Origin: Ruminococcus bicirculans (ex Wegman et al. 2014)
GTDB taxonomy: Bacteria; Bacillota; Clostridia; Oscillospirales; Oscillospiraceae
Assembly (NCBI GenBank): GCA_963649145.1
Contig: CAVJGI010000002.1
Coordinates: 4,105-68,104, forward strand
Direction: 5' to 3'
Length of the DNA stretch: 64,000 bases
The position numbers and the translations under genes are program-made. A model generated the notes under the pieces. That model had not been told where the DNA came from, did not search any database, and saw only the letters and a list, made by a program, of their open reading frames with translations. Shown here piece by piece: positions 1 through 47,741 of this stretch (position 1 is the stretch's first letter; the number at the start of each line of letters is the position of its first letter).

Positions 1-1
1 G

Positions 2-979
2 GAGCCGGAGGAGATCATCTTCACCTCCGGCACGACCGGCGGGATCAATCTCTTGGCGCAGATGTTCGCCGAGCAGGTCCTCCGCCCCGGCGACGCCGTC
101 ATCACGACGCAGATGGAGCACCACTCCAACCTCGTGCCGTGGCAGGAGGCGTGCCGCCGGAGCGGGGCGGAGCTGCGCGTCGCGCCCGTCACGGACCGCG
201 GGGAGCTCGACCTCCCGGCGCTCGCGCGGCTGCTGACGCCGGAGGTGAAGCTCCTCGCCATCACCGCCGTCTCCAACCTCACCGGCACGGTGAACCCGCT
301 GGAGGCGATCATTCCGGCGGCGCACGCCGTCGGCGCGGCGGTGCTCGTGGACGCGGCGCAGGCGCTGCGCCACCGGCGCATCGACGTCCGCGCGCTCGGC
401 TGCGATTTTCTCGTTTTCTCCGGTCACAAGCTCGGCTCACCCGGCGGCATCGGCGTGCTCTATGCCGCGCGGGACCGGCTCGCGCAGCTGCGCCCCGTCC
501 GCTTCGGCGGCGGGATGGTCGACGACGTGACGGACTATGAAGCGACATTTTCCGCCGCGCCGCAGTGCTTCGAGGCGGGAACGCCGAACTATCCGGCGGC
601 GATCGGGCTCGGCGCGGCGCTGGAATATTTGCAGGGCATCGGGCTGGACGCCGTCGCCGCGCGCGAGCACGCGCTGCTCGCGGCGTATGAGGAAATGCTC
701 GGAAAATTCCCCGCCGTGCGTATTTTGGGCGCGCCGCGCTCTCGTGCCGGAGCGCTCAGCTTCACGGTCGAGGGCGCGAGCGCGTTCGATGTCGCCGTGC
801 TGCTCGATAAGCTCGGCGTCGCGGTCCGCAGCGGCCACCACTGCGCCCGCCCCCTGCTCCGCCGCCTCGGTGCCGACTACGCCGTCCGCATCTCGCCCGC
901 GTTTTATAATGACTTCGACGAGCTGGAGACCGTAGAAGCCGCCCTCCGCCGCGTCTTCGGCGTGCTGGGGGCGAAATAA
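2..979 (+). CDS. cysteine desulfurase (class V PLP fold, SufS/CsdA-like); 5' end lies outside the window
   Basis: The frame is open from base 2 (EPEEIIFTSGTTGGINL...) into listed ORF 53..979. It has the PLP-lysine motif FSGHKL and the active-site loop SGHHCA, and is followed by a hairpin terminator. Confidence 0.85.
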   Translation, partial: EPEEIIFTSGTTGGINLLAQMFAEQVLRPGDAVITTQMEHHSNLVPWQEACRRSGAELRVAPVTDRGELDLPALARLLTPEVKLLAITAVSNLTGTVNPLEAIIPAAHAVGAAVLVDAAQALRHRRIDVRALGCDFLVFSGHKLGSPGGIGVLYAARDRLAQLRPVRFGGGMVDDVTDYEATFSAAPQCFEAGTPNYPAAIGLGAALEYLQGIGLDAVAAREHALLAAYEEMLGKFPAVRILGAPRSRAGALSFTVEGASAFDVAVLLDKLGVAVRSGHHCARPLLRRLGADYAVRISPAFYNDFDELETVEAALRRVFGVLGAK

Positions 980-1010: not shown

Positions 1011-1034
1011 TTAAAACAGCACGCAGCAGGTGAA
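1011..1034. repeat. 24-bp direct repeat, left copy (TTAAAACAGCACGCAGCAGGTGAA); identical to 2386..2409
   Basis: Exact 24/24 identity read directly. The right copy is the stop codon plus the last 7 codons (FTCCVLF*) of the minus-strand gene 2386..2913. Confidence 0.9.
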
Positions 1035-1053
1035 AAGGTTCTCGGATACTTCC

Positions 1054-1082
1054 TTGCAAATCCAAAAGATGCGTGATATAAT
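1054..1082 (+). promoter_or_regulatory. sigma-A-type promoter for the lipoprotein gene
   Basis: TTGCAA, 17-nt spacer, TATAAT. An AAAGGAGG RBS sits 8 nt before the ATG at 1110. Confidence 0.7.
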
Positions 1083-1109
1083 GCCACTATCAAAAAGGAG
1101 GTAAATAGA

Positions 1110-2054
1110 ATGAAGAAAACACTTTGTCTGATCCTCGCACTCACTATGATATTTTCCCTTGCTGGATGCGGTAAAAGCGAAAAAACACCCGATGTTAAAC
1201 AAAGTAACATTATCGAGCCGTATCTGGATGAAGAAGGAAACTTCGTTAGCAGCCTCTCTAAATTCGTTGTCGAACCGGATAAGTATTTTCCGAAGAGCAC
1301 GGTTGAAACGAACTCAGAAGATGACGGCTCTCGCATTATGGTTTACGTTGAGTTCTGTACTCAGGAAGAGATTGATGCGTATGCCGCTGATGCTAAAGGC
1401 GATAGATTCGTCAAGCTGTCATATTCAGGAGACGATGGAAAAGGCTGGAATGATGCTGAGGGCTGGTATTCCTTTGCCGTTGCTACTGAGGACAGTGGCG
1501 ATGATGAACAGCCTTTGAATGCGCTGTTTATCTACTGCATCAATAGCGATTTCGCGTATGATTTGAGACATCCTAAGGTTGAGGAGTCGCCCGTCCCTAC
1601 TGTTGAACCGACTCCGGAGCCTACGCCCGAACCTGTAGAAGAAAAAGATATTCGGTGGGATGTGATCAGGGAGCACGTAAAGATGCTTTCAATCACTGGT
1701 CCTGTTTATACAGACGAAGAGTCCGTTCGGATAATTGATTATATGAGCGAAAATTCTTTTGGAAGCGATGATGGAACTGAAATTCGCGAGCTTCTTGATG
1801 AGGATCCTGCACTTTATGTAGCAGTTTTTACTTTTACGCTTTCTTCATTACTTAAAGAAGAAAATGTCGTTTCAGATAAGGATTTTGCTTCGGCAGCGAA
1901 AGCGCTCCAGTTTCTTTTCACGTTCTACTATTACGATTACGATAATGAAAATTTAAATACCTCACTTACAAACGACGAGCTTGAATTACTCGAAACTATT
2001 TACCAAAACAGCGAGATCTTAGACGTTCTTCCCGAAATCCTTTCTGATAAATAA
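1110..2054 (+). CDS. hypothetical lipoprotein encoded in a low-GC insert
   Basis: Signal peptide with lipobox (MKKTLCLILALTMIFSLAGCG) and a strong RBS. It has an EPTPEPTPEP linker. GC is visibly about 40% against about 68% in the flanks. No family was recognised. Confidence 0.75.
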   Translation: MKKTLCLILALTMIFSLAGCGKSEKTPDVKQSNIIEPYLDEEGNFVSSLSKFVVEPDKYFPKSTVETNSEDDGSRIMVYVEFCTQEEIDAYAADAKGDRFVKLSYSGDDGKGWNDAEGWYSFAVATEDSGDDEQPLNALFIYCINSDFAYDLRHPKVEESPVPTVEPTPEPTPEPVEEKDIRWDVIREHVKMLSITGPVYTDEESVRIIDYMSENSFGSDDGTEIRELLDEDPALYVAVFTFTLSSLLKEENVVSDKDFASAAKALQFLFTFYYYDYDNENLNTSLTNDELELLETIYQNSEILDVLPEILSDK

Positions 2055-2063
2055 CCTCTACCA

Positions 2064-2112
2064 AAGCCCTTGTACGGACCTCTAATCAGGTCTCGCAAGG
2101 GCTTTTCTTTTT
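2064..2112 (+). terminator. intrinsic terminator after the lipoprotein gene
   Basis: Long hairpin AAGCCCTTG...CAAGGGCTT with an inner GACCT/AGGTC stem, followed by TTTTCTTTTT. Confidence 0.75.
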
Positions 2113-2157
2113 GCAAAAATCGGTGAGAAATCGTCCGTAAACTGCTGGTCAGATTTG

Positions 2158-2339
2158 TGCCCAGTTTTTTCTTTCTGCCCACTTTTTCTGGGCGACTGAG
2201 AAAATTCGCAATGTGAAACCGAGTCAAAAATGCAAAAATGGCCAGAAAAGCTGGGCAATTGCCCACTTTTTAAAACAAAAGTGGCCAGCTGAAACCGTTG
2301 CGCCCCAACGGTTTGCGGGTTTCTGCCCACTTTGCCCAC
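2158..2339. repeat. cluster of TGCCCA(C/G)TT motifs plus the palindrome TGGGCAATTGCCCA
   Basis: Motif copies at 2158-2166, 2176-2184, 2260-2268 and 2324-2332, plus a partial copy at 2333-2339. The perfect 14-bp palindrome is at 2252-2265. The stretch is non-coding. Confidence 0.6.
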
Positions 2340-2385
2340 CTATTTTTCATTACGCGCGAGAAAAAATTTTATATGCAGCGCCTTC

Positions 2386-2913
2386 TTAAAACAGCACGCA
2401 GCAGGTGAAGGCGATCTTTTTGTCGCCGTAGTAGTAGGGGAGGGCGTTGCTGCGGCAGACGTCGCTGACGAAGAGACCGCAGGCTTCCATGGAGGGGGCG
2501 AGGGTCTCCGGGTGACGGCAGGGGGCGTCCGGGTAGGTACACGCCGCGCAGCGGGTGCAGGTTCCGGCGCCCATGGGCAGAAAATCGAGCCCCTGCGCGT
2601 GCAGACGCGCGAGAAGGCGGTAAAAATTCGCGTCGTTGCGTCGCGAGACCTCCTCCGCCGCCTCCAAATCGAGCGAGTCCTCGCGCTCACCGATGGTCTG
2701 GAGCAGAACGCCGCCGCGGTATTTCCCGGCGCGCTCCCGCCAAAGCTCCAGCTCGCCGCAGCCCGGCGGACAGCTCCACCTTCGCCCGAAGCTCCGGCAG
2801 CGGTCGGCGCGGCACATGCTGCGCACCTCCGGCAGAAAGCGCAGCGTCGCGGGGTCGAGGTCCGCCGCGGCGGAGAAACCGCATTCGAGCGCGGCGGCTT
2901 TCACGTCGATCAT
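2386..2913 (-). CDS. DUF2284-type predicted metal-binding protein (Cys-rich)
   Basis: Cys-rich motifs SMCRADRCRSFGRRWSCPPGCG and GAGTCTRCAACTYPDAPC. The RBS GAGAGGA lies upstream. Its last 24 nt are duplicated at 1011..1034. Confidence 0.65.
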   Translation of the reverse strand: MIDVKAAALECGFSAAADLDPATLRFLPEVRSMCRADRCRSFGRRWSCPPGCGELELWRERAGKYRGGVLLQTIGEREDSLDLEAAEEVSRRNDANFYRLLARLHAQGLDFLPMGAGTCTRCAACTYPDAPCRHPETLAPSMEACGLFVSDVCRSNALPYYYGDKKIAFTCCVLF

Positions 2914-20737: not shown

Positions 20738-20744
20738 AAAAAAG

Positions 20745-20785
20745 AAAGGCGGACGCTTTCAAAAAAAGCGTCCGCCATTCTTTTC
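20745..20785. terminator. bidirectional terminator after ribF (left copy of a duplicated terminator arm)
   Basis: GGCGGACGC-loop-GCGTCCGCC with an A-run upstream and a T-run downstream. The 21 nt at 20738-20758 are repeated exactly at 21818-21838. Confidence 0.75.
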
Positions 20786-20793
20786 GGTTTCCG

Positions 20794-21741
20794 TCAGCTG
20801 TGGAAGGGACCGGGACCGGGCCATTTGCCGCTGCCGCCCATTTCGGCTTCGAGTTTTTCGAGCTGCTTCAGGAGGTTCATACGCACCGCCTCGTTCGGAA
20901 GGTCGGCGGCAAGGATCCCCATGCGGATCCCCTCGATGCTCAGCTCGCCCCGTCTGATCGCGTCCGCGGTCTCTTTGCCGAAGGTTAGCTCTTTGAAGCG
21001 TTCCTCCGGTGGCGTCATCTCGGTGATCTCCTCCGGTGTGTAGCCGCGGTTGCAGTACATCCGCGTCGTGTTGTGGAACGCGGTGAAAAGGTCGACAAAC
21101 ATTTTCATGGCGTTCTTGGACTTCATCCGGACGCCATACGCATCCAGAGCGTCGATGACCTCCTCCATCGCGGAGACCGTGACGTCGTTCACGATGCAAA
21201 GGAACTCGTAAAGAAGCGCGTTTGCGCTCACCTCGCTCAGACCGCCGCGCTCTGTCAGGAAGAGGAAAAGCCTGCGGCGCGCCGGGGTGTTCTCGCAGCA
21301 AAAGGGGTCGGCATATTCCAGAAAATCCTTTTTTTCCGGCACATAATAGGGCTTGCCCTGCTGAAGACTCTTTGTCTCGTAAATCAGCTCCCCGTCCTCG
21401 TCGAACAGCACATAGTTTATGATCTCGCGGTCAAGCGGCTTCGTGGGCTTTCCGTCGTCATAGAGCTCGTCATCGCCGAGGATGGAGTAGCACTCGCACT
21501 CATGCCGCGCGATCTCCGCAAAGGCGAGGAACTCCTCCTCCGTTACCAGCTTGGGGCTATAGGAGAAAACGATCTCCTTTGCCTTGCGCAGCGGGATGAT
21601 GCCGTAGAGATTTGCCATCGCGTTGAAATATTTGCGGAGGAGCCGCGAGGTCGTGTCCTTCAGCGGGATCTCCCGGTAAAGCGCGTTCAGCTGCCTGCGG
21701 GAATACTCCTGCGGGAATTCGTAATCTTTGTCCTTTGCCAT
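20794..21741 (-). CDS. hypothetical protein (orphan cassette gene), no recognisable domain
   Basis: Long ORF with its own TTGACT-17-TAGAAT promoter and GGAGGA RBS. The start was moved to the ATG at 21741 because the listed ATG at 21780 overlaps the -10 hexamer. GC looks lower (about 55-58%) than in the neighbours. Confidence 0.7.
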   Translation of the reverse strand: MAKDKDYEFPQEYSRRQLNALYREIPLKDTTSRLLRKYFNAMANLYGIIPLRKAKEIVFSYSPKLVTEEEFLAFAEIARHECECYSILGDDELYDDGKPTKPLDREIINYVLFDEDGELIYETKSLQQGKPYYVPEKKDFLEYADPFCCENTPARRRLFLFLTERGGLSEVSANALLYEFLCIVNDVTVSAMEEVIDALDAYGVRMKSKNAMKMFVDLFTAFHNTTRMYCNRGYTPEEITEMTPPEERFKELTFGKETADAIRRGELSIEGIRMGILAADLPNEAVRMNLLKQLEKLEAEMGGSGKWPGPGPFHS

Positions 21742-21778
21742 GTCGCTTCCTCCTCTGAATAATTGCGATCTCTTTGCC

Positions 21779-21807
21779 ATTCTAACGTGGATCGCGCTTC
21801 AAGTCAA
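21779..21807 (-). promoter_or_regulatory. sigma-A-type promoter of the orphan gene
   Basis: On the minus strand: TTGACT, 17-nt spacer, TAGAAT. Confidence 0.65.
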
Positions 21808-21824
21808 GCGGAACGGCAAAAAAG

Positions 21825-21857
21825 AAAGGCGGACGCTTACTTTGCGTTCGCCTTTTT
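21825..21857. terminator. bidirectional terminator (right copy), downstream of feoB on the minus strand
   Basis: GGCGGACGC-loop-GCGTTCGCC hairpin (one mismatch) with flanking A and T runs. Confidence 0.65.
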
Positions 21858-21994
21858 GAAATTTTTGCGCCCTTCTTTTTCTCTCAGGCGCGCGTTGGGC
21901 TCTCTTTTGTGTCTCGCCGGAGCCCCGGCTCGATCGTAGCTTAGCACAGATCGCGGTGGGGCGCAAGTGTAAAATCTGGGAAAGTGCCACGCTG

Positions 21995-27035: not shown

Positions 27036-28061
27036 TCAGTCGTCTTCGTCCGGCGTGTCCGCGGCGGGACGGTCCGGGCGGAAATCGCCGAGCGGGTTCG
27101 CGCTCGCGGCGGAGCGGAGCTCGCTGCTGTCGACGTGGGTGTAGATCTGGGTGGTGTTGAGGTTTTCGTGCCCCAGCAGCTCCTGAAGCGTGCGGACGTC
27201 GACGCCGTTTTGCAGCATCAGCGTCGCCGCCGTGTGGCGCAGCTTGTGGGCGGAATACTTGTCCGCGTCCAGCCCGGCGCGCAGGAGGCTTTTTTTGACC
27301 ATGCTGTGGACCGCCTCGCGGCTGAGCCGCCCGTGGCGCGCGGAGAGAAAGAGCGCATTGCTCCGTGCCCCGGCGGTCGGGCGGACGAGCAGGTAGTCGT
27401 TGATGGCGGCGGCGGTGGCGTCATTCAAATAGACGACTCGCTCCTTGCCGCCCTTGCCGAACACGCGGAGATTATCGCTGCGCACGTCGGCGAGGTTCAG
27501 CCCCACGATCTCCGAAATGCGGAGACCGCAGTTTAGGAAGATACATAGAATGCAGTAGTCCCGCTCGCGGAAGCGTCCGTCCACGGCGGAGAGGAGCTGG
27601 CGGCTCTCCTCCAGCGTGAGGTAGCGGGGGAGGGCTTTCGGGATCTTCGGCGAGTCGAGGTCCTGCACGGGGTTTTCCTTCAGGAGCTTCGCCTTGCTCG
27701 TGAGATATTTATAAAAGCTCTTGATGGACGCGATCTTACGCGCGCGGCTCGCCGCGCCGATGCCGTAGCTCGTCTCGCGGCTATGCTGGTTGCGCACGCG
27801 GTCGCGGCTTAAAAACGAAAGGAACGCATACACTTCCGAGAGCGTCACCGAGCCGACAAAATCGAGGTCCACGTCCGCAATGTCGATCTCCTCGATGTCC
27901 GTTCCCGCGGGAACGACGCCGCGGCTTAGCTTCAGATAGCGGAAAAAGGTCCGCAGGTCGAGGAAGTATTCGTCCACGGTGTTCTTCGAGTGCCCGCGGA
28001 TGGTCTCGTGATAGGTGAGGAAGTCCTGTAAAATTTTCGGTGTTCCGGCTCTGTAGTCCAT
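27036..28061 (-). CDS. tyrosine recombinase, XerC/XerD-like
   Basis: The catalytic region has AHKLRHTAAT, LGHENLNTTQIYTHV and an ARxGRLS-type Arg. An SAM-like N-terminal domain is present. ATG at 28061 follows AAGAGG. Confidence 0.8.
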   Translation of the reverse strand: MDYRAGTPKILQDFLTYHETIRGHSKNTVDEYFLDLRTFFRYLKLSRGVVPAGTDIEEIDIADVDLDFVGSVTLSEVYAFLSFLSRDRVRNQHSRETSYGIGAASRARKIASIKSFYKYLTSKAKLLKENPVQDLDSPKIPKALPRYLTLEESRQLLSAVDGRFRERDYCILCIFLNCGLRISEIVGLNLADVRSDNLRVFGKGGKERVVYLNDATAAAINDYLLVRPTAGARSNALFLSARHGRLSREAVHSMVKKSLLRAGLDADKYSAHKLRHTAATLMLQNGVDVRTLQELLGHENLNTTQIYTHVDSSELRSAASANPLGDFRPDRPAADTPDEDD

Positions 28062-46414: not shown

Positions 46415-47446
46415 ATGCTCTTTTTTGAGAGAGACATCGCAATCGACCTTGGAACGACCAACACGCTGGTCTATGTCCGCGGAAAGGGCGTCGCCATGCG
46501 CGAGCCGACCATCGTCGCCGTGGACAAGACGACCGGGAAGCTGCTGAAGATCGGCGAGGAGGCGCAGAAGATGCTGGGGCGCACCCCGGCGAACATCGTC
46601 GCCATCCACCCGATCGCGAACGGCGTCATTTCCGACTACGACATGACCACCCGCATGCTTCAGGAGCTGCTGAGCCGCGTCACGAGCTTCAGCTTTTTCA
46701 AGCCGCGCGTGATCGTCTGCGTGCCGAGCAGCATCACCGGCGTGGAGGAGCGCGCCATCATCGACGCGACAATCGAAGCCGGTGCGCGAAAGGTCTACCT
46801 GCTGGAGACCGCCGTCGCAACGAGCACCGGCGCGGGAATCGACATCTCCAAGCCGGAGGGCCATCTCGTCATCGACATCGGCGGCGGCACGACGGAGGTC
46901 GCCGTGGTCTCCCTCGGCGGCGTGGTGGAGGTCGAGTCCATCAAGACCGCGGGCGACGAGTTCGACGAGGCGATCGTCCGGTACATACGCCGGAAGCACA
47001 ACGTCCTCATCGGCGCGCGCACCGCGGAGGAGCTCAAGCGCGCCATCGGCTGCGTCTATACCCGGCGCGAGGTCGAGACCCGTGAGGTCAAGGGCCGCTG
47101 CCTGCTGACCGGTCTGCCCAAGGCGGTCACGGTCAACTCCAACGACATGATCGAGGCGCTCGCCGAGCCGGTCGAAAAGGTGCTGGAGACCATCCACATG
47201 GTTTTGGAGCGCACCCCGCCGGAGCTCGTGGCGGACATCTCCGTCAACGGCATCGTCATGTCCGGCGGCGGCAGCCTTCTCTGGGGGCTCGACAAGCTCA
47301 TCACGAGCCGCACCGGGATCGAAGCCGTCGTAGTGGACGACACCCTCGCCTGTGCCGCCTACGGAGCCGGAAAAATGCTCCGCGAGCTGAACAACATGCA
47401 GGAGGGCATGATCAACCTCGCGAGAAGAAAGCAGATGAAAGGGTAA
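46415..47446 (+). CDS. mreB: rod-shape-determining protein MreB
   Basis: IAIDLGTTNTLVY, VIDIGGGTTEVAV and MSGGGSLL actin-fold motifs. Confidence 0.95.
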   Translation: MLFFERDIAIDLGTTNTLVYVRGKGVAMREPTIVAVDKTTGKLLKIGEEAQKMLGRTPANIVAIHPIANGVISDYDMTTRMLQELLSRVTSFSFFKPRVIVCVPSSITGVEERAIIDATIEAGARKVYLLETAVATSTGAGIDISKPEGHLVIDIGGGTTEVAVVSLGGVVEVESIKTAGDEFDEAIVRYIRRKHNVLIGARTAEELKRAIGCVYTRREVETREVKGRCLLTGLPKAVTVNSNDMIEALAEPVEKVLETIHMVLERTPPELVADISVNGIVMSGGGSLLWGLDKLITSRTGIEAVVVDDTLACAAYGAGKMLRELNNMQEGMINLARRKQMKG

Positions 47447-47448
47447 AA

Positions 47449-47478
47449 AAACCGGCTCCCGAACGGGAGCCGGTTTTT
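47449..47478. repeat. 30-bp terminator hairpin, left copy (AAACCGGCTCCCGAACGGGAGCCGGTTTTT)
   Basis: Exact copy of 47712..47741 in direct orientation. The asymmetric GAAC loop fixes the orientation. Confidence 0.9.
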
Positions 47479-47711
47479 CAGCCTGTCAAAAAAAGTCCAA
47501 ACAACGCGGCGAAGCCGCACAATTTAAAGGCCTCCCTGTGTAAGGGAGGCTGTCAGCCGAAGGCTGACTGGAGGGTTGTAAGCTTCTGAAATTGCCAAGC
47601 TTGGCGTTTTCGGAAGCTTGGTAACAACCCCTCAGTCGCGCTTCGCGCGCCAGCTCCCCTTGCACAGGGGAGCCTTTAAAATCGCAGATCGCGGAGTTCT
47701 TTGACAGGCTG
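47479..47711. mobile_element. 233-bp non-coding fold-back element with 12-bp perfect terminal inverted repeats (MITE-like)
   Basis: CAGCCTGTCAAA at 47479-47490 and TTTGACAGGCTG at 47700-47711. The two arms are colinear imperfect inverted copies around the central CCAAGCTTGG. There is no ORF, and the element is flanked by the 30-bp duplication. Confidence 0.6.
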
Positions 47712-47741
47712 AAACCGGCTCCCGAACGGGAGCCGGTTTTT
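47712..47741. repeat. 30-bp terminator hairpin, right copy
   Basis: Identical to 47449..47478. It also serves as the terminator for the minus-strand hydrolase gene. Confidence 0.9.

Follow-up and report, generated by a model that had tools for sequence, protein, structure and literature searches.

A phage lipoprotein gene and a shortened origin-like element bracketed by a duplicated gene end in the Ruminococcus bicirculans chromosome

A 64,000-nucleotide stretch of a Ruminococcus bicirculans genome (called the window here; coordinates given without a contig name refer to its whole length) carries a block of foreign DNA inserted at the 3' end of a gene for a DUF2284 protein. Bases 1035-2385 come, in one unbroken piece, from the replication-module region of a siphophage genome, and hold one lipoprotein gene followed by a shortened copy of a conserved phage non-coding element. 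This element is probably a phage replication origin, with a layout of the iteron type, and we call it 'origin-like'. The best description of the whole is a phage moron plus a shortened origin-like element, captured by the chromosome with duplication of 24 bp of the target. Comparison of the host genome (G000; 2.23 Mb in 158 contigs) with its relatives confirms a lineage-specific insertion of foreign DNA, bracketed by duplication of the 3' end of the target gene. The perfect repeats most likely arose without an integrase, and we assign a probability of roughly 0.5 to an illegitimate, microhomology-guided insertion of origin-proximal phage DNA with target duplication.

The duplicated gene end and its empty site

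Four features define the insertion site.

980-1010, unstranded: bidirectional intrinsic terminator (hairpin 980-1004 plus T tract), from a terminator scan
1011-1034, plus strand: left, orphan copy of the 24-bp repeat (duplicated target), an exact match to 2386-2409
2386-2409, minus strand: right copy of the 24-bp repeat, consisting of the stop codon and last 7 codons of the DUF2284 gene
2386-2913, minus strand: DUF2284 gene (predicted metal-binding protein; Pfam PF10050, E 5.2e-42), intact despite the insertion

The repeated sequence, TTAAAACAGCACGCAGCAGGTGAA, occurs as exact copies at 1011-1034 and 2386-2409, and identity extends to 27 of 28 bases when 1007-1034 is compared with 2382-2409. 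None of 100 shuffles gave any 24-mer match, even with up to 3 mismatches allowed. A first-pass annotation of the window had reported this repeat, and its right copy as the end of the DUF2284 gene; both observations are exact, and the search for further genomic copies that it suggested returns only these two. The left copy comes directly after the terminator hairpin at 980-1004. That terminator serves the cysteine desulfurase gene on the plus strand and, prior to the insertion, also served the DUF2284 gene on the minus strand. The insertion fell where a bidirectional terminator and the DUF2284 stop codon meet with 0 bp between them, and the flanking genes are chromosomal housekeeping genes.

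The 1351 bp between the two copies have a GC content of 0.43, compared with 0.70 and 0.67 in the flanks and 0.625 in the genome as a whole. Codon use departs from that of the host in the same manner, with a third-position GC content of 0.41 in the lipoprotein gene versus 0.86-0.90 in neighbouring genes. The AT-richness of the insert relative to its flanks, noted in the first-pass annotation, is therefore borne out by both measures. A scan of 900-2600 against Rfam returned only sub-threshold terminator look-alikes.

In a congener, G006 (same genus, 93% identical), the terminator abuts the DUF2284 stop codon and a single 24-mer is present, which is the empty arrangement anticipated from the window alone. 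The DUF2284 gene end in G006 is the same as in the window, and that of a second congener, G002, differs at 2 bases. In G002 and in two metagenome contigs of its type, a gene for a LysR-family regulator directly follows the DUF2284 gene. The DUF2284 downstream junction is therefore variable within the genus, and has been remodelled there repeatedly. On the G002-type contigs L004, L030 and L031, the LysR-family gene starts no more than 12 bp past the DUF2284 stop codon, on the same strand, and replaces the terminator. Neither the insert nor its non-coding part was found in any of 60 relatives or of 400 further genomes of the order.

The same insert with both repeats is present in one other NCBI assembly and in three Logan run assemblies. 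Three of these four are identical over the whole compared stretch and the fourth is 99.7% identical; because other assemblies share it, the insert is not an assembly artefact. All five assemblies of the species have a filled site, and the insert appears fixed in the species. In addition, every contig that encodes the identical lipoprotein or the identical DUF2284 protein has the same arrangement.

Other assemblies break at about window 917-942 because the desulfurase gene is duplicated. The two copies of this 1200-bp gene (window 1-971, corresponding to G000:C2:3876-5075, and G000:C45:13112-14311) are 99.9% identical and sit in otherwise diverged paralogous operons, with a SufE-like gene upstream in one and downstream in the other. 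Either gene conversion or a collapsed assembly repeat accounts for this duplication.

Phage source of the inserted DNA

The features of the inserted block, in order along the plus strand, are as follows.

1035-1053, plus strand: leftmost foreign bases, upstream of the promoter; BLAST homology to the low-GC contig L016 starts at 1035
1054-1101, plus strand: promoter (TTGCAA at 1054-1059, TG-extended TATAAT at 1074-1082, 17-bp spacer; promoter scan, 10/12 matches) and ribosome-binding site AAGGAGG at 1095-1101
1110-2054, plus strand: gene for a 314-aa lipoprotein with lipobox LAGC (Cys20), identified as an open reading frame (ORF)
2063-2113, plus strand: intrinsic terminator of the cassette, an inverted repeat with arms 2063-2072 and 2096-2105 followed by a T run
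2150-2374, unstranded: shortened copy (~225 bp) of the conserved phage non-coding, origin-like element, by homology to the gap after the lipoprotein homologue in contig L033
2158-2339, within the element: TGCCCA(C/G)TT iterons in both orientations (8 motif copies)
2252-2265, within the element: palindrome TGGGCAATTGCCCA
2263-2284, within the element: hairpin CCACTTTT-TAAAACA-AAAAGTGG
2293-2313, within the element: second hairpin
2315-2340, within the element: GCGGG and further iterons
2375-2385, plus strand: junction-proximal 11 bp, GCAGCGCCTTC, which with the following TTAAAAC resembles GCGGCGCTTTAAAAC after the element in L033

The lipoprotein gene is the only ORF within 1035-2385. Its expression signals lie at 1054-1101 and 2063-2113, in agreement with the earlier description of a complete unit of promoter, ribosome-binding site, lipoprotein gene and terminator. 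The promoter is a strong one of the sigma-70 type, close to consensus and with an extended -10 element. The promoter and ribosome-binding-site region is retained on two contigs that carry homologous cassettes, L015 and L016, and the cassette terminator is nearly invariant across L015, L016 and L033. For a 44-aa ORF upstream on L016 no family was found, and it may not be a real gene.

In the predicted protein, a signal peptide precedes a conserved beta-rich N-terminal domain, which a Pro-rich linker connects to a helical C-terminal domain that varies. It had no match in Pfam, PADLOC or the PDB, and its matches to PHROGs were limited to the signal-peptide end (residues 1 to ~63) or had E values above 0.1. 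A search of IMG/VR loci with the lipoprotein alignment likewise returned signal-peptide matches only, and AlphaFold run on the 3-sequence alignment gave an unusable model (predicted local distance difference test score, 40). The homology search proposed in the first-pass annotation proved more productive among 5.8 billion proteins, where it revealed three homologues and hence a family of 4 members. The most distant of these, P0004, shares 28% identity in a full-length alignment (35% over 60% of the query by BLASTP) and the same two-domain layout. The ratio of nonsynonymous to synonymous divergence in the N-terminal domain is 0.04-0.10, whereas the C-terminal domain is variable. These proteins constitute a new, very small, phage-borne lipoprotein family under strong purifying selection.

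The gene for P0004 resides on L033, a 19-kb Logan contig of 46% GC that is plainly phage, with PHROG matches to primase-polymerase, helicase, single-stranded DNA (ssDNA)-binding protein, MazG, nuclease, exonuclease, a conserved 948-aa protein and HNH endonuclease. The non-coding DNA directly downstream of P0004 is a homologue of window 2150-2374, which makes up most of the ~280 bp of repeat-rich non-coding DNA in the insert. The source family comprises gut viral contigs of about 25-80 kb with genes for primase-polymerase, helicase, MazG, paired nuclease and exonuclease, and a conserved ~950-aa protein. No other genes of this phage family were found in the host genome, in which the motif cluster of the element is unique; a partner element with the same motifs elsewhere in that genome was therefore rejected as a candidate.

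An IMG/VR search for the element, seeded with the iteron pair AAGTGGGCA...AAGTGGGCA, revealed more than 20 contigs that are 74-86% identical to window ~2259-2372. Thirteen element copies were aligned. Loci with the element include L093, L099, L063, L077, L049, L110, L071, L105, L096, L106 and L103 from IMG/VR, together with L034/L035 and L033:10960-11300. The shared plan consists of iterons, an invariant hairpin, a second hairpin whose pairing is kept while its sequence varies, GCGGG, more iterons, an AT-rich tract and inverted iterons. Around the invariant hairpin the iteron changes between lineages (TGCCCACTT versus GGACACTTT); for example, two contigs of 31% GC have the same architecture with the iteron GGACACTTT. 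The window holds the left three-quarters of this element. Its copy breaks off after TTATAT, at ~2374, within the AT-rich tract, and the inverted iterons found on the right-hand side of the phage copies are missing. As in iteron phage origins, a replication module holds hairpins and an AT-rich tract with clusters of direct and inverted iterons on their flanks. The element is thus a new phage landmark, being widely conserved non-coding DNA in a large gut siphophage family.

The surroundings were read in 8 contigs, and in 7 of these the element is located upstream of the trio of nuclease, exonuclease and ~950-aa protein genes. The slot beside it is filled differently from phage to phage: the lipoprotein gene adjoins the element in L033 and is absent in L093, L063 and others, which have other small genes there, and in several of these contigs the adjoining genes encode unrelated lipoproteins, secreted proteins or small membrane proteins. 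Phage morons are units of promoter, gene and terminator that stand independently in phage genomes (Cumby, Davidson & Maxwell 2012, PMC3594210). The window cassette resembles them in having its own promoter and terminator, a single gene, a GC content unlike its surroundings and a cell-envelope product, and in having a homologue, P0004, that a phage genome carries in the same slot beside the conserved element; elsewhere in the family, phages place unrelated lipoprotein or small membrane-protein genes there. Unlike a typical moron, it lies outside any prophage, alone in the chromosome with a piece of a non-coding origin-like region.

Comparison of the insert by blastn with INPHARED phages and PLSDB plasmids gave no match, the 20-mer CAGTTTTTTCTTTCTGCCCA had only chance matches in GTDB genomes and IMG/VR, and 400 other genomes of the same order contained neither the element nor an iteron-family prophage.

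Route of insertion

A second capture of homologous DNA, shown to be independent of the first, was found on L015, an ENA contig. The homologous block lies there between serA and coaX, and has 77% DNA identity and 70% protein identity to the window cassette. The flanks of L015 are 96-97% identical to contig C17 of the host genome, where only a 28-bp terminator separates the matching flanks. L015 thus derives from a near relative, and C17 represents the empty site. The breakpoints are not those of the window, since the left end lies ~15 bp further in and the right end ~30 bp earlier in the origin-like element. No direct repeat of 10 bp or more was found around the L015 cassette, and at its right junction there is only a GCG overlap with the terminator hairpin. 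Synonymous divergence (dS) between the two cassettes is 1.4, whereas their hosts differ by only ~3.5%, which marks them as independent acquisitions from diverged donors rather than products of transposition.

A 24-nt repeat near the L015 cassette was considered as a flanking repeat and rejected, because it belongs to a neighbouring element that resembles a miniature inverted-repeat transposable element (MITE). This hairpin-rich repeat of ~160-300 bp occurs at window 47445-47741 and at L015:1083-1378, the L015 cassette adjoins one copy, and matches are present on well over 100 contigs of the host genome, often at contig ends.

A discrete small unit with flanking direct repeats, whose homologue occupies another site in a sister lineage, could be read as the product of a transposon, a MITE or an integron cassette, with the 24 bp serving as a fixed-length target duplication or a recombination site. 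We consider this very improbable and close to refuted. The insert has no terminal inverted repeats, no transposase and, by inspection, no attC-like core site; it is single-copy in the host genome; its ends differ between the window and L015; and the L015 copy has no duplication. Three islets of the host genome, two of which are described in the last section, have duplications of different lengths (24, ~43 and 64 bp). To our knowledge, 24 bp also far exceeds the target duplications of known DDE transposases.

The right-hand junction suggests a different route. The 27 bases that lead up to and into the right repeat, ATTTTATATGCAGCGCCTTCTTAAAAC, resemble the sequence ATTTTTATGCGGCGCTTTAAAAC at the same relative position in L033, and in a local alignment of window 2361-2412 with L033 only 2 of 500 shuffles score as high. 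From this resemblance we infer that TTAAAAC is native to the phage, which would natively have ended in ...CTTCTTAAAAC. At the junction, this phage sequence (CTTCTTAAAAC, as deduced from L033) matches the chromosomal sequence CTTTTTAAAAC at 10 of 11 positions.

We propose that phage DNA from beside the origin, plausibly single-stranded, was linked to the chromosome during replication or repair by two illegitimate joining events. The right joining point would lie within the extended microhomology between phage CTTCTTAAAAC and chromosome CTTTTTAAAAC. If the two chromosomal joining points were crossed by 24 bp, these 24 bp would be copied twice, which would create the direct repeat and leave the DUF2284 gene intact. 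After such illegitimate joining, the donor phage would be expected to read ...GCAGCGCCTTCTTAAAAC followed by its own sequence, without AGCACGCAGCAGGTGAA. The process might be a long-patch version of double illegitimate recombination of the short-patch type (SPDIR) acting on origin-proximal phage DNA, and a long-patch route would account for the position of one end of both captured blocks, which falls within the element's AT-rich tract.

SPDIR was described in Acinetobacter baylyi, in which ssDNA annealed at extended microhomologies at replication forks and was built into the nascent strand, with IncQ plasmid replication as one documented source of ssDNA (bioRxiv 10.1101/2024.07.02.601687). Work from 2016 on this type of recombination is cited in the same preprint and in bioRxiv 10.1101/2023.11.22.568220. 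As in these events, the insert would be ectopic DNA attached by two illegitimate junctions with the guidance of extended microhomology and no site-specific recombinase. The organism differs, being a gut Clostridia-like anaerobe, and the mechanism is reconstructed here from the end-product. The enzymology, the single-stranded substrate and the selective benefit are likewise proposals.

Several points weigh against this proposal. The source phage was not found; it may have carried only TTAAAAC or the whole 24-mer, and microhomology can be read only at the right junction. Two captures of nearly the same block would need strong selection or a bias in substrate, both of which are suppositions. The repeats here and in the islet on contig C67 (see the last section) start exactly at a stop codon, like the attachment (att) identity blocks found at gene ends, and related phages encode tyrosine integrases. 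Documented SPDIR events are microindels of tens of bases, whereas the present event is a 1.35-kb patch with a 24-bp duplication. We know of no demonstrated case of SPDIR that forms a duplication.

The first-pass annotation offered integrase-mediated insertion as its interpretation. In a version with a tyrosine integrase, the two 24-bp copies are att sites made by this enzyme. The cassette would then be the decayed remainder of a larger element or prophage, or else a non-autonomous mini-element, similar to a cis-mobilizable element (CIME) or to a satellite with a phage-type origin, moved in trans by a helper integrase. Perfect 24-bp repeats that duplicate a gene 3' end and end exactly at its stop codon are as expected for such a process, as is the empty site in G006. 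Enzymes are potentially available, since the host genome holds at least 8 tyrosine and at least 8 serine recombinase genes, and four of five long relatives of the source phage encode tyrosine integrases of 410-426 aa. Other islets in the genome also have direct repeats, one of them at a tRNA 3' end, which is a classic att target, and a phage origin on a mobilisable cassette would suit a satellite.

We nevertheless regard att recombination as rather unlikely, since no integrase or att system belonging to the insert came to light. The first-pass annotation saw no integrase, and no recombinase gene is present in or beside the insert; the nearest PF00589 match lies ~25 kb away, at window ~27.1 kb. 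The 24-mer and the motif cluster are unique in the host genome, and the 24-mer occurs in none of 2.9 million IMG/VR viral contigs. Its two matches in the metagenome collection are uninterrupted DUF2284 gene ends directly before a LysR-family gene. The phage loci examined hold no look-alike of the 24-mer with up to 5 substitutions, and by inspection the 24-mer has no dyad symmetry. In the four temperate relatives the element lies 25-42 kb from the integrase gene, and is therefore not attP. Repeated TGCCCACTT motifs that might pass for arm sites are part of the conserved phage element; so is a partial third repeat copy at 2266-2293, which was ruled out as a vestigial att site because it is the conserved hairpin.

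The content of the insert also speaks against decay. It is colinear with mid-genome phage DNA (moron leader, moron, origin-like element) to within 0-15 bp of both cores, such that a prophage could have decayed to it only by losing more than 20 kb in each of two deletions, both of which stopped 0-15 bp from an att core. The sister copy on L015 has no repeats, different ends and a more shortened origin. CIMEs are att-flanked islands without an integrase, for example those related to ICESt1 and ICESt3 at the fda 3' end of Streptococcus thermophilus. The insert shares with them direct repeats in which a protein gene's 3' end is duplicated, the lack of an internal recombinase and an empty site in relatives. 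Unlike CIMEs, it has no cognate integrase or attP that could be found, no arm sites, colinear mid-genome phage content and a sister copy without repeats. Thus, of the att-like insertion originally proposed, the foreign, lineage-specific insert and the duplicated gene 3' end stand, whereas its attribution to an integrase is not supported, given the missing attP, the distance of the element from the integrase gene and the L015 copy without repeats. We still allow att recombination a minority share of the probability, because the repeat starts at the stop codon, the phage family has temperate members and the source phage was not found.

The PF00589 match, on the minus strand at window ~27126-27623 (G000:C2:31230-31727), belongs to a tyrosine recombinase gene whose open frame spans 365 aa. 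This gene, at a distance of ~25 kb from the cassette, may mark a separate integrative element.

Recombination through short true homology, either as a Campbell-type single crossover or as homology-facilitated illegitimate recombination, is a further route, and one we think improbable. A circularised or one-end-anchored donor, possibly from a bacterium with the cassette beside a DUF2284 homologue, would recombine by the action of RecA or a phage annealing protein, and the stretch of homology would be duplicated. Repeats of 21-64 bp fall within the minimal range for recombinase-mediated exchange, which in E. coli is ~23-27 bp, and the phage family encodes an exonuclease and an ssDNA-binding protein. 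Moreover, the terminator copies of the islet at window 20738-21860 look like reciprocal hybrids, as a single crossover between similar sites would give. However, this route needs a donor that already has the 24-mer beside the phage fragment, and so merely shifts the question to an earlier event. The search for such a donor was negative among the contigs with the identical lipoprotein or DUF2284 protein, all of which have the window arrangement, and the 24-mer is in none of the examined phage loci.

If the replication- or repair-based insertion favoured here is correct, the window preserves a natural, kilobase-scale counterpart of SPDIR microindels, which so far are known only from Acinetobacter experiments. 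Bacteria would also have in it a way to gain individual expressed genes even from phages by which they may never be lysogenised. A caution follows for island-finding rules that equate direct repeats of gene 3' ends with site-specific recombination, since these could mislabel such events.

Possible functions and other islets

The insert would most likely have been kept because its surface lipoprotein is expressed and useful, and its composition has not drifted to that of the host. The origin remnant could be a passenger or have a function of its own. By analogy with known systems, a cell-surface role for the lipoprotein, possibly anti-phage, is plausible. Ltp proteins are superinfection-exclusion lipoproteins of temperate Streptococcus thermophilus phages (PMC3952083), and like them the window protein would be a phage-borne, independently expressed surface lipoprotein (its expression being predicted). 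Unlike Ltp, it has a different domain layout and no detectable sequence similarity, with matches only at the signal-peptide end. In lactococcal phages, an origin supplied in trans can confer phage-encoded resistance (PER; PMC8965321), and a chromosomal copy of the element could in principle titrate a phage initiator. Unlike PER origins, the window copy is shortened, without the right-hand inverted iterons, and is a putative origin.

The host genome also has an array of 30 clustered regularly interspaced short palindromic repeats (CRISPR; repeat GTCGCGCCCCGCAAGGGGCGCGTG...) at C14:24473-26490. Spacer sp2 exactly matches 7 IMG/VR contigs of 55-59% GC. Counting sp2, ten spacers match these contigs, and the nine others (given as sp15-20, sp22 and sp23) do so with 0-3 mismatches. 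These contigs likely represent a natural phage of the host that is unrelated to the iteron family. A CRISPR link between the host and the iteron phage family was therefore rejected, because the spacers target a different family, of 58% GC. Together with the lack of an iteron-family prophage in 400 genomes, this weakens the defence reading and renders it speculative.

A broader proposal, to which we attach little probability, would join these strands. The lipoprotein moron and the partial origin might form a recurrently domesticated two-part module, captured independently from diverged phages by sister lineages of the genus because origin-proximal ssDNA intermediates of replication are preferred substrates of long-patch illegitimate integration at replication forks. 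Several single-gene islets without an integrase would be further products of this process, which left duplications of 24-64 bp, and the module would be kept for protection through surface exclusion, initiator titration or both.

A genome-wide search for isolated direct repeats around lower-GC DNA revealed further islets, such that the host genome has at least three of this kind, each empty in one congener. The spread in duplication length speaks against one transposase or integrase for all of them and in favour of a route based on repair or replication; it is possible that the islets instead arose by independent att events.

One islet, at window 20738-21860, carries a minus-strand ORF of 328 aa with its own promoter, has 57% GC and lacks an integrase. 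It is flanked by a duplicated bidirectional terminator (~43 bp, of which 21 bp are exact), and G006 is empty at this site. The two terminator copies look like reciprocal hybrids, each combining the chromosomal form seen in G006 with that of a donor which differed slightly.

A second islet, at C67:7781-10121 (L169), is a 2.2-kb insert of 46% GC with one gene for a 605-aa secreted protein, protease-like by eye, and no integrase. The 3' end of a minus-strand gene for a 260-aa protein is duplicated here as a 64-bp repeat (1 mismatch) that starts at the stop codon and adjoins a terminator, an architecture shared with the DUF2284 site; G006 is again empty. Finally, at C70:6831-10312 (L170), a 42-bp direct repeat of a tRNA 3' end surrounds 3.4 kb of DNA with no integrase between the repeats. 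Its genes, named by eye, encode the hybrid-cluster protein Hcp, a 4Fe-4S protein and a Crp/Fnr regulator.

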